NCBI GenBank assembly: GCA_050730875.1
Contig: JBOHNX010000001.1
Span: 13,827-77,826 of the forward strand
DNA length: 64,000 nt
Origin: Candidatus Saccharimonadales bacterium
Lineage (GTDB): Bacteria > Patescibacteriota > Saccharimonadia > Saccharimonadales > EFPC-124
Direction: 5' to 3'
The notes under the pieces are model-generated. The model searched no databases. It had not been told where the DNA came from and was given only the letters and a program-made list of their open reading frames with translations. Positions 9,921 through 62,062 of this stretch are shown piece by piece; positions within the stretch are counted from its first letter, which is position 1, and every line of letters starts with the position of its first letter. The position numbers and the translations under genes are program-made.

Positions 9921-10562
9921 ATGATGAATATAGATCTGACGTACTTATTGATCGTTTTAGGGTCAATTTTAATCTCGATGACCCTGCACGAGGCCATGCA
10001 TGCTTTTGCGAGTTACTGGCTAGGGGATGACACTGCAAAGGCGCTTGGTAGGCTAACGATTAACCCGATTGCGCATATTGACCCCTTCACGACTGTATTG
10101 TTGCCTCTGATGCTTGCAGCAATTGGAGCACCGCCGTTTGGTGCCGCTAAGCCCGTGCCTTTTAATCCGTACCGTTTACGATACGGCGAATATGGGTCAG
10201 CGATCGTGGGTGCCGCTGGACCACTGACTAACCTGGCATTAGCAATCCTCGCCGGGCTGGTAATTCGTCTTTTTGGTGCCGAACTTGATGGCGGTCTCTT
10301 AGTGGCACTTGGAACGTTTACACTTGTTAACTTGGCGTTCTTCATATTTAATATGATTCCTTTCCCGCCGCTAGATGGTTCGCGGGTGCTTTACGCATTT
10401 GCGCCTGACGGTGTACGGCGTGTTATGGAGCGCATAGAGTCTATGGGTTTTGCGGCAATAATCTTCTTTATGTTAATCTTCTTCGCCGTTCTTAGCGAGC
10501 CATTTGTTCGTGTGTTACAAGGCGCTTTAGCTCTCATTACGGGTGGCTACGTTACATTTTAG
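9921..10562 (+). CDS. Site-2 protease family (peptidase M50) membrane metalloprotease
   Basis: HEAMHAF (HExxH) lies within the first TM region. The protein has multiple TM helices and a PPLDG motif. Confidence 0.8.
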   Translation: MMNIDLTYLLIVLGSILISMTLHEAMHAFASYWLGDDTAKALGRLTINPIAHIDPFTTVLLPLMLAAIGAPPFGAAKPVPFNPYRLRYGEYGSAIVGAAGPLTNLALAILAGLVIRLFGAELDGGLLVALGTFTLVNLAFFIFNMIPFPPLDGSRVLYAFAPDGVRRVMERIESMGFAAIIFFMLIFFAVLSEPFVRVLQGALALITGGYVTF

Positions 10563-10580
10563 AGGTGTTATAATGAGGGT

Positions 10581-10736
10581 GTCCTGCTTACTAAGCATGC
10601 AGGTGATATGATTTTTCCTGAACAATCGAACCGCGCATAGGGAGTCCTAGATCAAAATTTCCGTGGAAATTTTGTGCGGACACCCACTTGTCTATACAAG
10701 CGGGGAATATCTATCGCCTGTACACGTAAGCAGGAC
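10581..10736 (+). ncRNA. Candidate rod-like structured RNA immediately upstream of tRNA-Pro (6S-like? unassigned)
   Basis: TATAAT at 10569-10574. The ends pair over 11 bp (GTCCTGCTTAC at 10581-91 with GTAAGCAGGAC at 10726-36). The rod continues with CAGGTGATA (10600-08) paired to TATCGCCTG (10712-20), plus further helices and internal hairpins. Confidence 0.3.
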
Positions 10737-10750
10737 TGTTTATTGCCAAT

Positions 10751-10826
10751 CGGGATGTGGCGCAGTTGGTAGCGCGTACGGCTGGGGGCCGTGAGGTCGC
10801 AGGTTCAAGTCCTGTCATCCCGACCA
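10751..10826 (+). tRNA. tRNA-Pro (GGG)
   Basis: C1:G72 acceptor (CGGGATG/CATCCCG). Anticodon stem TACGG/CCGTG with loop CTGGGGG. CCA is encoded. Confidence 0.9.
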
Positions 10827-19299: not shown

Positions 19300-22200
19300 A
19301 TGACAAATTTGCTGATAGGTTTCATCATTGGTACAACCTTTCTGCTCCTCTTTCTGTATGTTGGCTATTGGCAGTATCGTAAGGTATTGCGCGAAGCAAA
19401 GAACTACGAGCGTGGACTTAAAATGGTCCCGCTGCTTATTCATCTGCCTCCCTCGAGCGACGACATTGAGGCAGGGGGTCGGGATGCGCGAGATATTGCC
19501 GAGGAAGCTATTTCTCAGGCGCAGACCATGTATAACATTATCTCGAGTACGGCCACCAAGGGCTTTAAGAGCAAACTGTACGGCCAGCGTCACCTCGCGT
19601 TCGAGATTGTCGCAAGCAGAGGGCTTATCCATTATTACGTCGTCGTGCCACTGGTTCTGCTCGATGTTATTAGGCAGGCGGTTATAGCCGCGTACCCCAC
19701 TGCCAGATTAGAAGAGTGTGAAGAGCACAACATTTTTAGTCCAGTTGGAAAAATTAGTGGGACAATTGGTGGTGAGCTTACGTTGAGGAAAGAATTTAGC
19801 TTCCCGATCGCAACCTACCAAGAGACGAAACGCGATGCAATGCAGGCAATATTGAATGCTCTTTCGACCCTAACAAAAGAAGACGGGGCTGCAGTCCAGA
19901 TTTTGCTAAGGCCGGCCCACGAAAAATGGACAAAAACTTCGCTGGCTAGAGCAGGCAAGATACGAAAGGATAAAGGTGTTAAGTCGGGGGTGGCGAGTGT
20001 GCTTTCCATGAAAGACCTAGCGGAGGCGCTTTGGAAGCCGCCGGAGACGAAAGATGTCAAACCTGAAGATAAACAACTAAGTTCACTAGAGCAAGCAATT
20101 GTTGATGCTGTCGAAGATAAAACCAGGTATCCTGGTTACGAGATACTTATACGCATTATAGCCTCATCGAATACTGCGGTGCGTTCACAGGCTATCCTAA
20201 AGAACATCGTTGCAGCTTTTTCTCTCTTTGATTCACCAAGCAAAAATGGTTTTAAATTCTCGCTCGCAAAAAATGTTGAGCAATTCGCTACTTCATTTAT
20301 ATTTCGTTTCTTTCCCCAGGAAATATCACAGAGCGTTTTGAACAGTGTAGAACTTGCAACAATATTCCATTTTCCAGACCAACGCAACACGCCTACCTCA
20401 CAGGTTCAGCGACAAGCGTCCAAGCAGGTTGATGGGCCGTCGCAAATGCTCGATCAGGGCGTGTTGTTTGGATACAACCTGTTCCGGGGTGTAAAGAAAG
20501 AGATACGTCTAGGTGATACCGACCGACGCAGACATGTCTACATAATTGGTCAGACAGGAACTGGTAAATCAGGTCTTTTGGAGAACCTCGCCTTGCAAGA
20601 CATGCTGGATGGCAAAGGCTTTGCCTTTGTTGATCCGCATGGTGATTCCGCCGAACGCCTGTTGGGCATGGTGCCAAAAGAGCGGGTAGAGGATGTCATT
20701 TACTTTTCTCCTGGTGATATGGATCACCCCATGGGGCTGAACCTATTTGAGTACAAGACACCTGACCAGCGCGACTTTTTGGTTCAGGAAGCTATTGCGA
20801 TGCTGTATCGGCTTTACGACCCTGGCCATACGGGCATCATAGGGCCACGCTATGAAAACTGGTTTCGTAATGCCGCATTAACAATCATGAGTGACCCGGC
20901 TGGAACAAGCTTTATTGATGTACCACAAGTATTCAATGACAATGACTTTGCGAAAGAAAAGCTCAAACACGTCACCAACCAGGTCGTGCTCGATTTTTGG
21001 AACAAAGAAATGGCACAGACTAGCGACTATCATAAGTCAGAGGTACTTGGCTGGTTTGTGAGCAAGTTCGGTGCATTTTTGTCCAATGACATGATGCGCA
21101 ACATTATTGGGCAAACAAAATCTTCATTTGACCTCCGAGAGATAATGGATAACAAGAAGATACTGCTAGTGAATCTGTCCAAGGGTAAGACAGGCGAATT
21201 AAATAGCCAGCTTTTGGGTATGATTTTTGTAATGAAATTCCAAGTTGCTGCTATGAGCCGCTCTGATATTCCCGAAGAGGAGCGAGTTGACTTCAGCTTA
21301 TACGTTGATGAGTTCCAGAACTTTGCGACCGAATCATTCGAAACGATTCTATCTGAGGCACGAAAGTATCGTCTGAGCTTGATCTTGGCTAACCAGTTCA
21401 TGACGCAGCTTAGTGACAAGATCCGGGAAGCAGTTATCGGTAACGTCGGTACAGTTATTTCTGGGCGAATAGGCACGACAGACGCAGAGCTGATGGCAAA
21501 ACGTTTTACGCCTACATTTGACGCAGAAGATCTCACGAAACTGCCAAACTTTGAGACGGTTGCTACGGTTATGATCAACAATGTGCCCTCTGCGCCGTTT
21601 AGCATGTCCCTAATACCACCTTTGGGTAAACCTAACCCACAGCTCGCAACTGCCCTTAAACGCTTGTCGTACGCGAAGTACGGGCGTCCACGCGCAAATG
21701 TTGAGCGGGATATATTTAAACGTCTTCGCGCAGGTGATGATGCACGTTCAGCACGCCAGGGTGCATTAAAGCGCCCATCGGACACTCAAACATCTACGGG
21801 GTCATCTTTCCTAGATGAATGGCTGGCAAAGCGCAAACAGCAGACGGCTACGGCCGCACCACCAAAACAGGCGCCAAAACCGCGGACTACCAGTCCTCAA
21901 ACTCCATCAACAGATGCGCAGAAGCCACTCGTTATGCAATCTGAGCCCACCAAAGCTGATGAGACTCCTCAACCAACACAACCGCAAACGCCACCACCAC
22001 ACAAACCTCTGTATGCAGATCTTCGATTAAAACGGCTCCAGGAACAGGGGATAGGAGGCAACGTTGCTTTTAACCAGCCATCGCAGCACAAAGCACCGAG
22101 CGTGCATGATTCGACAATGCTTGAAGAGGCGCTTGCAAGCACGGCCTCTAGTGACGTCATGAAGGATGAGCAAACGAAGCGTCAGGCAGAACCAGGCGAG

Positions 22201-22338
22201 CTGCAAGTGACGAAGGATAGTACGTCACAGAATGGTTCAACGAACGGCGTAGATGAGATTTATATTGATGTGCGGGGCAAACTACATCATAAGGACGAGG
22301 CGGATGATCAAAATAAACCGCAAACGCCGGTAAGCTAA
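19300..22338 (+). CDS. TraD/TraG/VirD4-like (type IV coupling protein-like) membrane ATPase with a long disordered tail
   Basis: 1012-aa ORF with these elements:
- N-terminal TM helix
- roughly 350-aa unknown domain ending ELATIFHFP
- Walker A GQTGTGKSG and Walker B-like LYVDEFQNF
- ARKYRLSLILANQ
- C-terminal P/Q/T-rich region of about 230 aa. Confidence 0.65.
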   Translation: MTNLLIGFIIGTTFLLLFLYVGYWQYRKVLREAKNYERGLKMVPLLIHLPPSSDDIEAGGRDARDIAEEAISQAQTMYNIISSTATKGFKSKLYGQRHLAFEIVASRGLIHYYVVVPLVLLDVIRQAVIAAYPTARLEECEEHNIFSPVGKISGTIGGELTLRKEFSFPIATYQETKRDAMQAILNALSTLTKEDGAAVQILLRPAHEKWTKTSLARAGKIRKDKGVKSGVASVLSMKDLAEALWKPPETKDVKPEDKQLSSLEQAIVDAVEDKTRYPGYEILIRIIASSNTAVRSQAILKNIVAAFSLFDSPSKNGFKFSLAKNVEQFATSFIFRFFPQEISQSVLNSVELATIFHFPDQRNTPTSQVQRQASKQVDGPSQMLDQGVLFGYNLFRGVKKEIRLGDTDRRRHVYIIGQTGTGKSGLLENLALQDMLDGKGFAFVDPHGDSAERLLGMVPKERVEDVIYFSPGDMDHPMGLNLFEYKTPDQRDFLVQEAIAMLYRLYDPGHTGIIGPRYENWFRNAALTIMSDPAGTSFIDVPQVFNDNDFAKEKLKHVTNQVVLDFWNKEMAQTSDYHKSEVLGWFVSKFGAFLSNDMMRNIIGQTKSSFDLREIMDNKKILLVNLSKGKTGELNSQLLGMIFVMKFQVAAMSRSDIPEEERVDFSLYVDEFQNFATESFETILSEARKYRLSLILANQFMTQLSDKIREAVIGNVGTVISGRIGTTDAELMAKRFTPTFDAEDLTKLPNFETVATVMINNVPSAPFSMSLIPPLGKPNPQLATALKRLSYAKYGRPRANVERDIFKRLRAGDDARSARQGALKRPSDTQTSTGSSFLDEWLAKRKQQTATAAPPKQAPKPRTTSPQTPSTDAQKPLVMQSEPTKADETPQPTQPQTPPPHKPLYADLRLKRLQEQGIGGNVAFNQPSQHKAPSVHDSTMLEEALASTASSDVMKDEQTKRQAEPGELQVTKDSTSQNGSTNGVDEIYIDVRGKLHHKDEADDQNKPQTPVS

Positions 22339-36045: not shown

Positions 36046-36518
36046 AGACGAGTCCGTTTTAAGCGACAAAACAAGGCATCGTTTACATGCCACAAACACC
36101 TACAGTTAATACACCTGTAGGTGTTTGTTTTTGTTTGGAGCCCGTTCTGCTTACATTTGGGGCAGGTGCTGCGTTCGTGAAGCCAGCCACGGTATGTGTC
36201 GAGCTGGTCCTGGATGTAATTATCATCCATCGCAAGGTCGTAGCGTTTTGCGAGCGTCTTGGCTGCGTAGTGCCAGGCTTCGGTTTCGCACCTTAGAAGC
36301 TGTATATCGTGTTCGTAACCTTGGTGGTCCAATTCACCGTGAGCAATTTCGTGTAGTAAGGTCCAGATCTGTTTTTCATCGGTTAGCGGCAAGTGGGTTA
36401 TTGTGCGGTTTTGGGGTGACCAACGGAAAAGCTCACCTTCCTCAAAGACATAGGCTTCAAAGTCATTCTTAATGCGTTCAACTAGTTTGCTGATGTGTAG
36501 CATAGTAGTAGCAGCCAT
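36042..36518 (-). CDS. Putative HExxH zinc metallopeptidase-like protein with a C-terminal Zn-ribbon
   Basis: Contains LLHEIAHGELDH and CPKC...CINCRC. It shows a 4-nt convergent overlap with the KGG gene and overlaps the ROK gene end. Confidence 0.45.
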   Translation of the reverse strand: MAATTMLHISKLVERIKNDFEAYVFEEGELFRWSPQNRTITHLPLTDEKQIWTLLHEIAHGELDHQGYEHDIQLLRCETEAWHYAAKTLAKRYDLAMDDNYIQDQLDTYRGWLHERSTCPKCKQNGLQTKTNTYRCINCRCLWHVNDALFCRLKRTRL

Positions 36519-37281
36519 AAAGCACAGCCTCCTCGGGGTGTTTTGCTTTGCGAAGTTCTGGTTGAGATATGTAATGGGGGATACGACGTTTTAGCTGTTC
36601 TTGCAGGAGGTGCTGGAATTGTTCGAACTGAGTACTTACACCGCCTCCAAAAACGATCACAGATGGTTGCAACATAGGGATAATGGCGCCCAAACCTATA
36701 GCGAGGTGTTCGGCAACCCACTGCCATTCTTGGGGCTCGTGAAGCTCCTTGGCCATCTTATTAAAATGCTGCTTAATGGCTTTGCCAGATGCGAAATCTT
36801 CCCATTCCTGCCATTTATCTTCGTGCCAAAAGATCATATGGCCAGCTTCGCTTGGTGAGAGTGCCGGAAGCAAACGACCCTGCACATATATCCCACTTCC
36901 AATGCCCGTGCCGAGCGTTATGTATACGCCTAGGGGTGGTGTTTTAGGCAGTGCATTGATTTCCGCAAGGCCCGCGAGATTTGCATCGTTTTCGATATAA
37001 ATTGGACAGTTGTAATGCTCGGTCAGAAGCCGCTTTAGCGGAAGGTTGTGCCAAGGCAAGTTGCCGCAACGTACGATGGTTCCTTTATCATCAACCACAC
37101 CAGGCACACCAATAGAAAGAGCCGAAATTGAATTAAACTGTTCGAGTTGACGGGTAAGTTCCTGTAAAAACTCAGCCGGATCGGCAGACGTAGCGAAACG
37201 GAGCTCATTGACGGGCTGCAAGGCTTTGTCAAACTGAGCAATAAGGGTTTTTGTACCTCCAACGTCAACCGCCGTAATCAT
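36478..37281 (-). CDS. ROK-family sugar kinase (glucokinase-like)
   Basis: Contains the N-terminal MITAVDVGGTKT and the ROK signature region IENDANLAGLAE...GTGIGSG. Confidence 0.82.
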   Translation of the reverse strand: MITAVDVGGTKTLIAQFDKALQPVNELRFATSADPAEFLQELTRQLEQFNSISALSIGVPGVVDDKGTIVRCGNLPWHNLPLKRLLTEHYNCPIYIENDANLAGLAEINALPKTPPLGVYITLGTGIGSGIYVQGRLLPALSPSEAGHMIFWHEDKWQEWEDFASGKAIKQHFNKMAKELHEPQEWQWVAEHLAIGLGAIIPMLQPSVIVFGGGVSTQFEQFQHLLQEQLKRRIPHYISQPELRKAKHPEEAVLYGCYYYATHQQTS

Positions 37282-37331
37282 GAGCCGTTGGCTCCTGGCA
37301 GCAAGTTATTGTTACACAAAGGAAAAATCAT
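37278..37331 (-). CDS. Mini-ORF 3 (MIFPLCNNNLLPGANGS), ATGA-coupled to the ROK start
   Basis: Translated by hand. The ATG at 37331 is preceded by GAGGA. Its TGA (37278-80) overlaps the ROK ATG (37279-81). Confidence 0.3.
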   Translation of the reverse strand: MIFPLCNNNLLPGANGS

Positions 37332-37381
37332 AGGACTACGTCCTCTGGCAGCATTAAAATATTACATGGTTGAAAAATCAT
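37328..37381 (-). CDS. Mini-ORF 2 (MIFQPCNILMLPEDVVL)
   Basis: The ATG at 37381 is preceded by AGGAG plus 8 nt. Its TGA overlaps the ATG of mini-ORF 3. Confidence 0.3.
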   Translation of the reverse strand: MIFQPCNILMLPEDVVL

Positions 37382-37428
37382 GAGCTTCGCTCCTGGCAGC
37401 AAATCATCTTTAATAGCGGAAAAATCAT
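37378..37428 (-). CDS. Mini-ORF 1 (MIFPLLKMICCQERSS)
   Basis: ATG at 37428, and its TGA overlaps the ATG of mini-ORF 2. It matches the rpsU leader ORF at 12 of 16 residues. Confidence 0.3.
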   Translation of the reverse strand: MIFPLLKMICCQERSS

Positions 37429-37512
37429 GGTCCTAGTGTAGCATGCGTGGCTTTAGTTTGCGCTTTTCGATAAATGGTTTTATTATTTAATAAAGAAGAG
37501 AAGTGAGGGGAT

Positions 37513-47189: not shown

Positions 47190-47477
47190 ATGTTGGACGT
47201 CTTCATCACATCGAGGGTGCGCCGAAAAATCATTGTTGTCTATGCTAAGTATCCAGATTTTCGTACGCACGTACGAGGACTTGCGAAGCTCATTAAGGAA
47301 GATCCAGGTAACATTCAGCGCGAACTGAAGCGTCTCGAAAAAGTAGGTTTCCTACATTCGGAAAAGCAGGGTAACACCAAAATCTACTCGACCAATAAGA
47401 ACTTTGCAATCTTTAAAGAACTGCAAGGCATTGTTTTGAAATCGCAAAATGCGAACAAAGCAAAACGCGAAGCTTAG
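47190..47477 (+). CDS. Small winged-helix transcriptional regulator
   Basis: The 95-aa ORF is paralogous to the N-terminus of the protein at 8353 (RVRRKIIVVYAKYPD...GNIQRELKRLEKVGFL). Confidence 0.55.
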   Translation: MLDVFITSRVRRKIIVVYAKYPDFRTHVRGLAKLIKEDPGNIQRELKRLEKVGFLHSEKQGNTKIYSTNKNFAIFKELQGIVLKSQNANKAKREA

Positions 47478-47527: not shown

Positions 47528-49174
47528 ATGTCAGGGCCCTTGGAACAAATCTTACGTGCACGCGGCTTTAATGATAAGGTTTTGCGTGAGGCATTTTTGG
47601 CGCCATCGTATGAAGCGTTGAATCATGACCCTTTTCTGCTGCCGGATATGGCAAAAGCAGTAGAGCGTTTGCAAAAAGCCCGTGCAGCTAGTGAATTAGT
47701 CTATATTTATGGCGATTACGACATCGATGGTTTAACGGCAACAACCTTGCTACTCGAGGCATTTGCCAGCTTTGGCATAAAGCGCGAAGCATTTATCCCT
47801 AATCGCTTCAAAGATGGCTACGGTTTGAGCAAGGCTGCGATAAAACAGCTTGCTGAGCGCGGCGCTAAGCTAATCGTGACGGTCGACTGTGGCAGTCTTT
47901 CGCACGCGGAAATTACGCTGGCCAATGAATTGGGCATGGATGTTATTGTGACCGACCACCACAGTGTTGCCGAAACTATGCCGTCTGCCGTCGCAACGAT
48001 TAACCCAAAACGGACTGATCACAAATATCCGTTTATCGACCTTGCTGGTGTTGGCGTGGCATTTAAGCTTGTGCAGGCCATGCAACAAAAAATGGAGGGG
48101 CTGGCCAAGGGCCAAGAAAAATGGCTACTCGATCTGGTAGCGCTTGGGACGGTTTGTGACGTAGTACAGCTGATCGATGAAAACCGGGCAAATGTTTTTT
48201 GGGGCCTGAAGGTACTCGCCAAGACCCGTCGACTTGGTATTAAAGCCTTGGCGCAAGTTGTTGGACTATCGATGGACAGACTTACAGCAAGGAGCCTCGG
48301 GTTTGTAGTCGGCCCGCACCTAAACGCCGCCGGTCGGTTAGAAACGGCCGAATTGAGCCTTGAGCTACTGACAACCGAAGATCCATTGCGAGCGGTTGAG
48401 ATTGCATACAAATTACGCGAGATGAATATGGCGCGGCGTACCGAGCAAGATCGTATTTTTAAGGAAGCGCTGCAGCAAGCGGAGACTTTTGCAGATGACC
48501 CAGTATTAGTCCTTTCCGGTGCCGGCTGGTCGCACGGCATTATTGGTATTGTGGCGGCCAAAGTTTTGGAGTCGCTCAAAAAGCCCACGTTTGTATTGGA
48601 GGAAATGGGTGATGAGAGCAAGGGATCAGCGCGCAGCTATGGGGATTTCAGCGCAGTGGAGGCGATTCGGTTTGCTGAGCAGTGGCTTACGAAAGGTGGT
48701 GGCCATAAACTCGCGGCTGGTGTGACGCTCAAAACCGAGCACATCGCGCATTTTCGTGCGGCAGTGAATGAGTTCTACAAATCACAAAAATTTACTGACC
48801 AACTGCGGCATTTAGAACCAATCGCTGACGCGATATTGGAAGACGTAAGCGAACTCGATCACGAATTATTTGCCGCTTTAAGACAATTTGAACCATTCGG
48901 GCACGGAAATCCGGAGCCTGTATTTCATTTGTCTCGTGGCGTGGTAGCAAAACGACAGCAACTGGGTAAGGATGGGTCTCATCTAAAACTAGAAGTACAC
49001 GATGCTAGGGGAAACAAATGGCCGATGATTGGATTTGGAATGGCTACGACCTACACGCATGAAGTTGGTGAAGAAATAGCGGCTTGGTTCAAGCTCATTG
49101 AAAATGAATGGCGGGGCAACGTGTCGCTCGAGGGTCAGCTTATCAAAATCGCTTCATCCCCGGAAACCGAGTAA
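47528..49174 (+). CDS. recJ: Single-stranded-DNA-specific exonuclease RecJ
   Basis: DHH motifs (GDYDIDG, TVDCG, VTDHH) and a DHHA1 region (GGGHKLAAG). The last 4 codons and the stop lie inside the left arm of the palindrome at 49163. Confidence 0.9.
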   Translation: MSGPLEQILRARGFNDKVLREAFLAPSYEALNHDPFLLPDMAKAVERLQKARAASELVYIYGDYDIDGLTATTLLLEAFASFGIKREAFIPNRFKDGYGLSKAAIKQLAERGAKLIVTVDCGSLSHAEITLANELGMDVIVTDHHSVAETMPSAVATINPKRTDHKYPFIDLAGVGVAFKLVQAMQQKMEGLAKGQEKWLLDLVALGTVCDVVQLIDENRANVFWGLKVLAKTRRLGIKALAQVVGLSMDRLTARSLGFVVGPHLNAAGRLETAELSLELLTTEDPLRAVEIAYKLREMNMARRTEQDRIFKEALQQAETFADDPVLVLSGAGWSHGIIGIVAAKVLESLKKPTFVLEEMGDESKGSARSYGDFSAVEAIRFAEQWLTKGGGHKLAAGVTLKTEHIAHFRAAVNEFYKSQKFTDQLRHLEPIADAILEDVSELDHELFAALRQFEPFGHGNPEPVFHLSRGVVAKRQQLGKDGSHLKLEVHDARGNKWPMIGFGMATTYTHEVGEEIAAWFKLIENEWRGNVSLEGQLIKIASSPETE

Positions 49175-49288
49175 GGACGATCTCGAAACCTGTGCCCGCC
49201 ACTCCACATAATTGGCAAGCCCTGAGTGTCGGGGTTTCCAATTATGTTCCGTGGCTACGGGGTTTCGAGATCGTCCTTACTCGGTTTC
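49163..49288. repeat. 126-nt palindromic element with 28-bp perfect arms
   Basis: GAAACCGAGTAAGGACGATCTCGAAACC (49163-90) is the exact reverse complement of 49261-88. The inner stems are GCCAC/GTGGC and ACATAATTGG/CCAATTATGT. Confidence 0.85.
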
Positions 49289-49313: not shown

Positions 49314-49342
49314 TTGCTTCCTCTCCTCTGTTCTGATAGAAT
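49314..49342 (+). promoter_or_regulatory. rpsU-leader promoter
   Basis: TTGCTT, 17-nt spacer, TAGAAT. The -10 element ends 10 nt before the mini-ORF ATG, so the transcript is nearly leaderless. Confidence 0.55.
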
Positions 49343-49352
49343 AACAACCGAT

Positions 49353-49403
49353 ATGATTTTTCCGTCGTTAAATATTAAGTGCTGCCAGGAGCGAAGCTCA
49401 TGA
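49353..49403 (+). CDS. Mini-ORF (MIFPSLNIKCCQERSS), ATGA-coupled to rpsU
   Basis: Translated by hand. The 3' 26 nt, TGCTGCCAGGAGCGAAGCTCATGATT, are identical to the junction at 37376-37401 on the minus strand. The TGA overlaps the rpsU ATG. Confidence 0.35.
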   Translation: MIFPSLNIKCCQERSS

Positions 49404-49615
49404 TTCAAGTTACCCGTAAAGACGAGAAAGAAGCAGTCGAGAACCTGATTCGCCGCTTTAACCGCAAGGTGCAGCAATCTGGCGTTCTTTCGCGCGTAAA
49501 GAGCCTGCAATATTTCGAGAAGCCAATCAGCAAGCGCGAGCGTCGTGAACGTGCGATTGTTCGCCGTGCCCGCAAAGCAGATAAACTCAAGCGAATTCGT
49601 TTGGGTCAGCGCTAA
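49400..49615 (+). CDS. rpsU: 30S ribosomal protein S21
   Basis: Reads MIQVTRKDEKEAVENLIRRFNRKVQQSGVL...RRERAIVRRARK. AGGAG lies 8 nt upstream of the ATG at 49400. Confidence 0.9.
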   Translation: MIQVTRKDEKEAVENLIRRFNRKVQQSGVLSRVKSLQYFEKPISKRERRERAIVRRARKADKLKRIRLGQR

Positions 49616-58030: not shown

Positions 58031-58252
58031 ACTGCGTTTTGGTGTAAATTACATCAAATGAGTGGCTATCACCCACGAAGGCAGCGGGAAGAAAGTGGTT
58101 TAACGAGTAGAACCCGCCGGTCCACGACCCGTTATCGATCGTAAAGAAGTGCTTTTGAGATCACTCAAAAGAAGTTGGATGGTACCGCCTTTCAGGGTTC
58201 CAACACCATCTCTTCTAGAGTGATTTTTCTATATAAATAATTGAGGTGGAGT
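58031..58252 (+). promoter_or_regulatory. T-box leader (Ile)
   Basis: The T-box core AGAAGTTGGATGGTACCGCC (58170-89) has a UGGU bulge complementary to the A73-CCA end of tRNA-Ile. The candidate specifier ATC-A sits in the loop GTGG-CTATCAC-CCAC. Stem III is CTTTTGAG/CTCAAAAG. Confidence 0.7.
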
Positions 58253-61834: not shown

Positions 61835-61857
61835 ATTATCTCTTACAGCCCGCTTTT

Positions 61858-61973
61858 CGCCATGTTGGTTTGAATAAACCGTTCACGCGCGAGAAGACGA
61901 CTTTTGAGCCTCGGTCTCAAAAGATCGCCTTTTCGGCTCCACTTCGGTTGAGTTTATTCAAACCAACATGGCG
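61858..61973. repeat. 116-nt palindromic element with 22-bp perfect arms
   Basis: CGCCATGTTGGTTTGAATAAAC (61858-79) is the exact reverse complement of 61952-73. An inner hairpin is CTTTTGAG-CCTCGGT-CTCAAAAG. Confidence 0.85.
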
Positions 61974-62062
61974 AGCGCTACCTCCTTCTATTCCTGAAAG
62001 CATAAAACTGTTACAATGGGCATAGTTTTCATAGATTAGCGAGGGTAGTTTAAGACGCAAAA

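Follow-up and report, generated by a model that had tools for sequence, protein, structure and literature searches.

Why should the gene for ribosomal protein S21 (rpsU) begin behind a short open reading frame (ORF) that recurs before an unrelated gene of the same genome? The question is raised by a 64,000-nucleotide (nt) stretch of a Candidatus Saccharimonadales genome, here called the window, in whose numbering all coordinates are given. Direct reading of the rpsU leader shows a 16-codon ORF, MIFPSLNIKCCQERSS, at 49353-49403 of the forward strand, whose closing TGA shares bases with the rpsU ATG at 49400. Its final 26 nt, TGCTGCCAGGAGCGAAGCTCATGATT, are identical to positions 37376-37401 of the minus strand, in front of a gene for a ROK-family sugar kinase, and the peptide that it encodes agrees at 12 of 16 positions with that of the first cassette before the kinase gene. 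These features had been pointed out in a first-pass annotation of the window and hold as described; over 53 nt the rpsU leader (49353-49405) is 87% identical to 37376-37428, the first of three such units at the ROK locus. From the comparisons below we conclude that the rpsU leader is probably one copy of a family of start-codon insertion cassettes of Saccharibacteria (Saccharimonadales), each with a mini-ORF coupled to the gene that follows.

The first-pass annotation had counted five or more copies in the window and argued that so many could not be chance. Comparison with shuffled sequence bears out the argument. Of the 5' block ATGATTTTTCC, at no more than one mismatch, 8 occurrences were counted where 1.4 were expected, and 0 of 100 shuffles had as many; the two-block pattern ATGATTTTTC-N-TGCTGCCAG turned up 4 times, with an expectation of 0. 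Full copies are fewer: a covariance model (CM R1) found exactly four in the 64 kb, at 49353 (+) and at 37428, 37381 and 37331 (-). Cassettes are 47-53 nt long, stand at ATGAT(T) starts and have ATGAT on both flanks. Each unit consists, in order, of ATGATTTTTCC, 16-18 variable AT-rich nt, (A/G)TGCTGCCAG, and a 4-5 bp stem with a triloop, followed by the ATGAT(T) of the next unit or gene; a Shine-Dalgarno (SD)-like GGAG(G) sits in the 5' arm of the stem. The features of both loci are collected in Table 1.

Table 1. Cassettes, their parts, host genes and cassette-free counterparts (window positions, or the contig or locus concerned)
Feature	Position or locus	Strand	Basis or content
Putative ancestral rpsU promoter TTGCTT-17-TAGAAT, outside the cassette	49314..49342	+	read directly; box conserved in cassette-free L131-L134
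rpsU cassette mini-ORF, 16 codons and TGA overlapping rpsU ATG (ATGA)	49353..49403	+	CM R1, 59.2 bits, E = 1.5e-11; orthologous site empty in L131-L134
Conserved 5' block ATGATTTTTCC, in the near-leaderless start position	49353..49363	+	nearly invariant in 24 copies
Variable AT-rich segment without in-frame stops	49364..49379	+	frame statistic over 24 copies
Conserved block TGCTGCCAG	49380..49388	+	alignment of copies
Hairpin GAGC-GAA-GCTC, abutting rpsU ATG; SD-like GGAG (49388-49391) in 5' arm	49389..49399	+	family covariation
rpsU (S21, 71 amino acids), host gene, native start ATGATT	49400..49615	+	PF01165 match
ROK cassette 1, 47-nt form, closest relative of the rpsU copy	37382..37428	-	pairwise comparison; CM R1
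ROK cassette 2, 50 nt, hairpin GGAC-GTA-GTCC	37332..37381	-	read directly; two-block pattern
ROK cassette 3, 50 nt, hairpin GAGCC-AAC-GGCTC; TGA overlaps ROK ATG at 37281	37282..37331	-	CM R1, 68.9 bits
-10 box TACACT, 6 nt upstream of first cassette ATG; putative ancestral leaderless ROK promoter	37435..37440	-	shared with L135, L136, L137
ROK-family sugar kinase, host gene, start ATGATT	36478..37281	-	PF00480 match
Possible decayed cassette, 5' block and AGTCCTA only	10608..10652	+	covariance model, 13.3 bits, E = 0.47
Downstream gene: S21 (rpsU)	window		homology search
Downstream gene: ROK kinase	window		PF00480
Downstream gene: RmuC	L024		host-gene check
Downstream gene: PilN	L085, L119, L121		Pfam
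Downstream gene: PilN-like	L125-L128		N-termini alike by eye, outside the Pfam run
Downstream gene: RuvA	L091		same host-gene check as RmuC
Downstream gene: FtsE-like ABC ATPase	L120, L129		L120 by Pfam; L129 by 183/200 identity to L120
Downstream gene: RecF-like	L122		same host-gene check
Downstream gene: ABC-F	L123		same host-gene check
Downstream gene: unknown membrane protein	L124		without Pfam match
rpsU site, empty	L131-L134		TTGCA(T/C)-17-TAGAGT, 8 nt, ATGATTCAAG
rpsU site, filled	window		same promoter, 10 nt, ATGATT, 41 further cassette nt, ATGATTCAAG
ROK site, empty	L135-L137		TACACT, 6 nt, ATGATTAC
ROK site, filled	window		TACACT and 6 nt, 147 nt (47+50+50), ATGATTAC
ftsE site, empty	L139/L140, L141, L142		TATAAT/TAAAAT, ag(c/t)gcta, ATGATT
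ftsE site, filled	L120, L129		single cassette between that promoter and ATGATT

At three loci, rpsU, ROK and ftsE, the cassette is present in one or two genomes and precisely missing from the orthologous site of relatives. The four relatives with an empty rpsU site encode S21 proteins 89-92% identical to that of the window and share the gene order recJ-rpsU-yqeY-adk, and the FtsE of L139/L140, where the site is empty, is 97% identical to the FtsE of L120, where it is filled. CM R1 reported zero cassette copies in 143 kb of these relatives. By this comparison the cassette was inserted, or else lost, with precise ATGAT(T) boundaries, and it varies in presence between close relatives. The first-pass annotation had left two options, co-regulation of rpsU and the kinase gene or a small selfish element; the precise empty sites make the second the better one, and no positive evidence was obtained for the first. 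As to S21 itself, the protein of the window is 100% identical to a Candidatus Saccharimonadales S21, all S21 homologues listed begin with MIQVT or MIIVT, and MIQVT is the native start in the clade.

The same comparison separates the cassette from the promoters. At rpsU, TTGCTT (49314-49319) and TAGAAT (49337-49342) are separated by a 17-nt spacer, and the second box ends 10 nt before the mini-ORF ATG, as annotated; conservation of the pair suggests that it functions as a promoter. A consensus promoter scan did not flag it, TTGCTT fitting only 3 of 6 positions, and, run across the ROK array to see whether the cassette has a promoter of its own, it reported no sigma-70-like site. Because the promoters are unchanged at the empty sites, and copies also occur between pilM and pilN, the promoters belong to the loci and not to the cassette. 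The view of the leader as a portable module for translation initiation thus stands for the start, the SD-like GGAG(G) and the stop/start overlap placed before unrelated genes, and falls for the promoter, which is already present at empty sites. By its sequence, the cassette would supply start, SD and coupling, and the host gene is probably still translated. With a -10 box 6-8 nt from the ATG, sigma-70 geometry suggests that rpsU, ROK and ftsE were all ancestrally leaderless. In L131, L133, L134 and L136 many genes lack an SD and have a -10-like hexamer (TACACT, TATAGT or TACAAT) placed 6-8 nt ahead of the ATG, and others have a clear GGAGG; leaderless mRNAs seem to be common in this Saccharimonadales lineage.

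A motif search in other Saccharibacteria, proposed with the first-pass annotation as a check, found the cassette there before other genes. In all, 24 copies were gathered from the window, three named Saccharibacteria genomes (L024, L085 and L091) and 11 metagenome contigs (L119-L129). The first pattern used on the genome collection was too loose, most of its 118 matches being chance and only those in the three named genomes real; the pattern used on metagenomes demanded ATGAT at both ends. The copies are spread over 16 loci in arrays of 1-3 units, and all 24 have the orientation of the downstream gene. The host genes are mutually unrelated and show no functional theme. Where a locus was found without requiring a downstream ATGAT, the host gene started with ATGAT in 5 of 5 cases, against a background of 9 in 58 gene starts. 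Copies inside the pilM-pilN operon mostly begin in an overlap with the gene before them (the pilM TGA overlaps the cassette ATG in 5 of 7, and one more reads TAATG), and copies that come first in a transcription unit have a -10-like hexamer ending 6-10 nt upstream of the cassette ATG. Two search patterns applied to viral contigs gave zero cassette copies. A tblastn search of the window for homologues of ruvA, recF, ftsE, pilN, rmuC and ABC-F found none, so that it offers no further empty sites at those genes.

Two comparisons bear on how copies are related. The 47-nt form with a 4-bp stem is common to the rpsU copy and ROK copy 1 and occurs in no other genome, which points to copying within this genome. 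When variable regions were compared across genomes, the most similar pairs were 0.74 identical, the median being 0.47; in sequence this AT-rich, such similarity is no more than suggestive of cassette sub-lineages shared between genomes.

This distribution bears directly on the most serious alternative, that the cassette is a cis-regulatory tag of the host. The hairpin and TGCTGCCAG would then bind a trans-acting protein or RNA that gates the translation of housekeeping genes, with the mini-ORF and its coupling as the read-out; the S21-linked translational autoregulation floated in the first-pass annotation belongs here. Such a tag would fit end blocks that are far better conserved than the flanking genes across deep divergence, a hairpin that masks the SD together with a portion of the start codon, and a TGCTGCCAG that is invariant with no coding or rRNA-pairing reason. 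It sits poorly with the absence of the cassette from orthologous rpsU, ROK and ftsE genes of close relatives, with a gene set that has no functional theme, with 0 to 3 copies per site and with leaders that outside the hairpin are no more structured than shuffles, and no candidate factor was identified. The autoregulation idea has no support, the cassette being missing at all four close-relative rpsU loci and most copies lying before non-ribosomal genes. We consider a cis-regulatory tag improbable, and the start-codon insertion cassette remains the preferred reading.

The hairpin was examined across the 24 copies. Among its cells 97.4% are paired, and both sides have changed at 4 of the 5 pairs, as in GAGGC/GCCTC, CGGGC/GCCCG, AAGGT/GCCTT and GGAC/GTCC, whereas controls with slid partners were all at most 50% paired. 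RNAalifold added two further invariant pairs (CA with UG) that extend into the start codon. The triloop is GNA with a C-G closing pair in 23 of 24 copies; we take this C-GNA-G loop, as a lead only, to be a motif of the d(GCGAAGC) type, a mini-hairpin of unusual stability in DNA. The local fold of the rpsU hairpin amounts to -3.5 kcal/mol (DNA parameters). Outside the hairpin the leaders are no more stably folded than their shuffled counterparts (z = -0.48 and +0.67). Neither a gathering-threshold scan of the window nor permissive scans of both leaders (E up to 10) against Rfam 15 gave a family, the sole match being a spurious snoRNA at 14 bits.

A structured non-coding RNA of 5' untranslated regions, such as a riboswitch, a ribosomal protein leader or an attenuator, could draw on the covariation in support of one small hairpin and on the array junctions, where a hairpin followed by AUGAUUUUU was flagged as terminator-like. 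Set against this are the lack of an Rfam match even at E up to 10, the conservation of only 5-7 pairs around a middle that varies freely except for the avoidance of stops, ordinary folding energies, and copies lying between coupled genes within operons. This explanation is very improbable.

What the variable middle does avoid is a stop in one frame. ATG-to-ATG lengths are 50 nt in 19 copies, 47 in two, 49 in two and 53 in one, and an ATGA stop/start overlap ends 22 of the 24 units; in the two 49-nt units the stop falls within 8 nt of the start. Length changes offset one another, so that, the 49-nt units aside, departures from 50 nt come in multiples of three: units with four T residues instead of five still measure 50 nt, and the 47-nt form has 1 nt fewer in the variable part and 2 nt fewer in the stem. 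In the variable segment frame 1 contains a stop in 0 of 24 copies, against 15 and 28 stops (43 in total) in the other two frames. Shuffling of the variable segments predicted 9.5 copies with an in-frame stop, and an outcome with none was obtained in 0 of 2000 shuffles. No search pattern demanded an open frame, and the way in which copies were collected thus has no bearing on the test.

The mini-ORF measures 16-18 codons, of which about six sense codons in the middle are unconstrained. A functional micropeptide family, MIFPxxxxxxMLPGGEAS, would account for a frame that stays open and for the MIFP...LPGGEAS encoded by most 50-nt copies. The peptide is not conserved, though: in the 47- and 49-nt forms TGCTGCCAG falls in a different frame and yields CCQ, residues differ through compensatory stem changes (GGEAS, AGEAR, EDVVL, GANGS), and the six middle residues vary without constraint. 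An open frame with an unconserved peptide points to a constraint on being translated and not on the product, and a micropeptide is less credible still than a structured RNA. Least probable of all is a local duplication of each gene's 5' end, or convergence, without common origin, since slippage between ATGATT repeats could extend tandem arrays but would not place at least 33 near-invariant nt, missing from empty sites, at unrelated genes and in different genomes.

From these patterns we infer translation of the mini-ORF, re-initiation and mobility for the insertion cassette. At the leaderless rpsU, ROK and ftsE genes the cassette ATG would replace the gene ATG directly after the -10 box. Ribosomes would initiate there, read the 16-17 codons of the mini-ORF and melt the hairpin, terminate at the UGA and re-initiate on the overlapping AUG, aided by GGAGG 9 nt upstream. 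Inside operons the cassette would occupy the ATGA overlap of two genes, keep the coupling at both ends and be fed by the ribosome that terminates upstream. Host expression would be retained, making an insertion nearly neutral, and selection could later hold the unit intact as the initiation region of the gene. The hairpin may render the gene dependent on translation upstream of it, or have a part in the copying of the unit.

Several points weigh against this account. Gain cannot be separated at any single locus from loss by recombination between the flanking ATGATT repeats. The ATGAT target specificity derives from the five unbiased loci only, and the metagenome contigs were counted as presumed Saccharibacteria. 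Neither a transposase nor terminal inverted repeats nor any further machinery for mobility came to light, the other genomes having been covered in windows of 8-20 kb. No role was found for TGCTGCCAG; neither it nor ATGATTTTTCC is complementary to 16S, 23S or 5S rRNA, the only rRNA pairing of the cassette being that of SD with anti-SD. In addition, the end blocks and TGCTGCCAG are 86-100% identical between loci with PilN proteins only 30-42% identical and third-codon positions at about 0.3 identity. Conservation of the blocks thus exceeds simple neutrality and suggests a further constraint, for which a trans-acting partner, continuing copying or gene conversion would be candidates.

A bolder form of the insertion reading, which we regard as unlikely, would meet the last point. 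The cassette would be an active mobile element targeting start codons, among the smallest known, whose C-GNA-G mini-hairpin and ATGAT core are recognised by a dedicated Saccharibacteria enzyme, possibly on single-stranded DNA, or by a conserved trans-acting factor. If so, the enzyme or factor would explain end blocks that are nearly identical despite flanking proteins at 30-40% identity, and the element would turn leaderless genes into SD-assisted and coupled ones, shaping translation initiation in a reduced genome.

Among known systems the mycobacterial interspersed repetitive unit (MIRU) is, judged by described features, the closest analogue. MIRUs are dispersed repeats of small size that commonly stand in tandem and share the orientation of the neighbouring genes; each contains a small ORF that overlaps, at both ends, the ORFs on either side (PMC12548453, PMC4473831). 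They are said to insert at start codons, their internal ORF being coupled at -4 (ATGA) so that the effect on the host gene is minimised (PMC12548453), and to lack dyad symmetry (PMC4473831). This account is that of Supply et al. 1997 as described in these two articles. The cassette is likewise short (both are about 40-100 bp), dispersed, often tandem and gene-oriented, has an internal ORF overlapping its neighbours at -4, and sits at start codons, with presence or absence at three loci among relatives and 1 to 3 units per array. Unlike a MIRU, it has a conserved, covarying 5-bp hairpin that contains the SD, so that dyad symmetry is present; its host belongs to another phylum, the Saccharibacteria of the candidate phyla radiation; and three of its documented targets are leaderless, the cassette ATG inheriting a leaderless start. 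The cassette is AT-rich and has no evident sequence relationship to MIRUs, the two having been compared by description. MIRUs are GC-rich. Composition and host would argue against homology.

In its manner of working the cassette would resemble the coupling cassette of the synthetic bicistronic design (BCD), outlined in general terms in PMC5995908. Support for such coupling here is indirect, from the open-frame statistic and the stop/start geometry. The cassette shares with the BCD a leader cistron of about 16 codons, an SD for the next cistron inside that leader, and a stop/start overlap, through which the translating ribosome would clear local structure; the BCD differs in being engineered and immobile, in giving the leader cistron its own SD and in having no conserved hairpin. 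Leaderless short upstream ORFs of Actinobacteria, potentially coupled, deliver ribosomes to the gene that follows (Shell et al. 2015, as cited in PMC12548453). Like them the cassette is a leaderless mini-ORF upstream of a gene, potentially coupled; unlike it they are specific to single loci and are not copies of a dispersed repeat.

The cassette also has features of repetitive extragenic palindromes and bacterial interspersed mosaic elements (REP/BIME), of elements like miniature inverted-repeat transposable elements (MITEs) and of Rickettsia palindromic elements, being small, non-autonomous, dispersed and provided with a hairpin. Rickettsia palindromic elements tolerate translation. The ATGAT direct repeat flanking the cassette is reminiscent of a target-site duplication. 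Inspection of the two ends (the left as ATGATTTTTCC, the right in reverse complement as GAGGCTTCGCC) showed no terminal inverted repeats. In contrast to these elements, the cassette consists of about 45 nt of unique sequence, is strictly bound to a start codon and frame, and has no known associated transposase. A ribosomal protein leader and an Rfam family were rejected as assignments, for want of orthologous conservation and of an Rfam match, respectively, and a typical MITE is improbable. In literature searches no account of an element of this kind in Saccharibacteria came up.

MIRUs apart, no dispersed repeat family is known to us that targets start codons for insertion and is rendered harmless by translational coupling. 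The cassette would be a second, independent example, in a distant phylum with tiny genomes, of a principle already known. Its clean empty and filled sites, defined ATGAT target and conserved hairpin may help to show how MIRU-like repeats spread, and its insertion can turn leaderless genes into SD-assisted and coupled ones. Cassettes could mislead the annotation of start codons and could serve as markers for strain typing. Arrays may break short-read assemblies, so that copy numbers in metagenome-assembled genomes may be underestimated; compare the short-read Logan contig SRR27067773_334360 (L130), which encodes the identical ROK protein and ends inside cassette 3. Within the ROK array, at 37332-37344 (-) and at other junctions between units, a hairpin followed by AUGAUUUUUCC was flagged as terminator-like, and weak pausing or termination between units is conceivable.

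Start-codon over-calls of another origin were seen among the homologues. The S21 and FtsE homologues P0032, P0055, P0077, P0090, P0116, P0316 and P0351 have N-terminal extensions that are translated leaderless promoter, for example ...IIVL-MILLDR from TATAATAGTGCTA-ATG. In the over-called S21 homologues the extension is promoter sequence, not cassette sequence.

Two lesser matches in the window had been put forward in the first-pass annotation. At 10605-10650, described as a relic, the 5' block and AGTCCTA are indeed present, the rest of a unit was not recovered and its status is uncertain; the element meets an in-frame TAG after 10 codons, has neither hairpin nor ATGA junction and lies in a spacer before a tRNA gene. 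It may be a decayed cassette. The spacer (10560-10750) runs from a membrane-protein ORF ending at 10562 to the tRNA at 10751 and, along with the solitary ATGATTTTTCC, includes a TATAAT box and a CCTGC...GCAGG hairpin; its content may represent either the remains of a cassette or a small transcript with no relation to one. The weaker echo at 58221 in the ileS leader is best put down to chance, having a T-rich 5' block but no other part of a unit and going unreported by the covariance model. Near-matches at 47223, 23023 and 21220 lie inside coding sequence and were likewise rejected as chance; the last is a weak match to the cassette model (21220-21268) within an ORF of 1012 amino acids (19300-22338).

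A different kind of insertion lies next to rpsU. At 49163-49288 lies a palindromic element of 126 nt, whose perfect arms of 28 bp enclose a partly self-complementary loop of 70 nt; it covers the last recJ codons and the stop and ends 25 nt upstream of the rpsU promoter. Its arm was not found in any of the loci retrieved. With recJ-rpsU spacers of 72 nt in L133 and 43 nt in L134, these relatives have no room for the element, which points to a second, unrelated insertion. A long hairpin of like geometry and different sequence (61857-61974, perfect 23-bp arms, 72-nt loop) may belong to a class of palindromic intergenic insertions.

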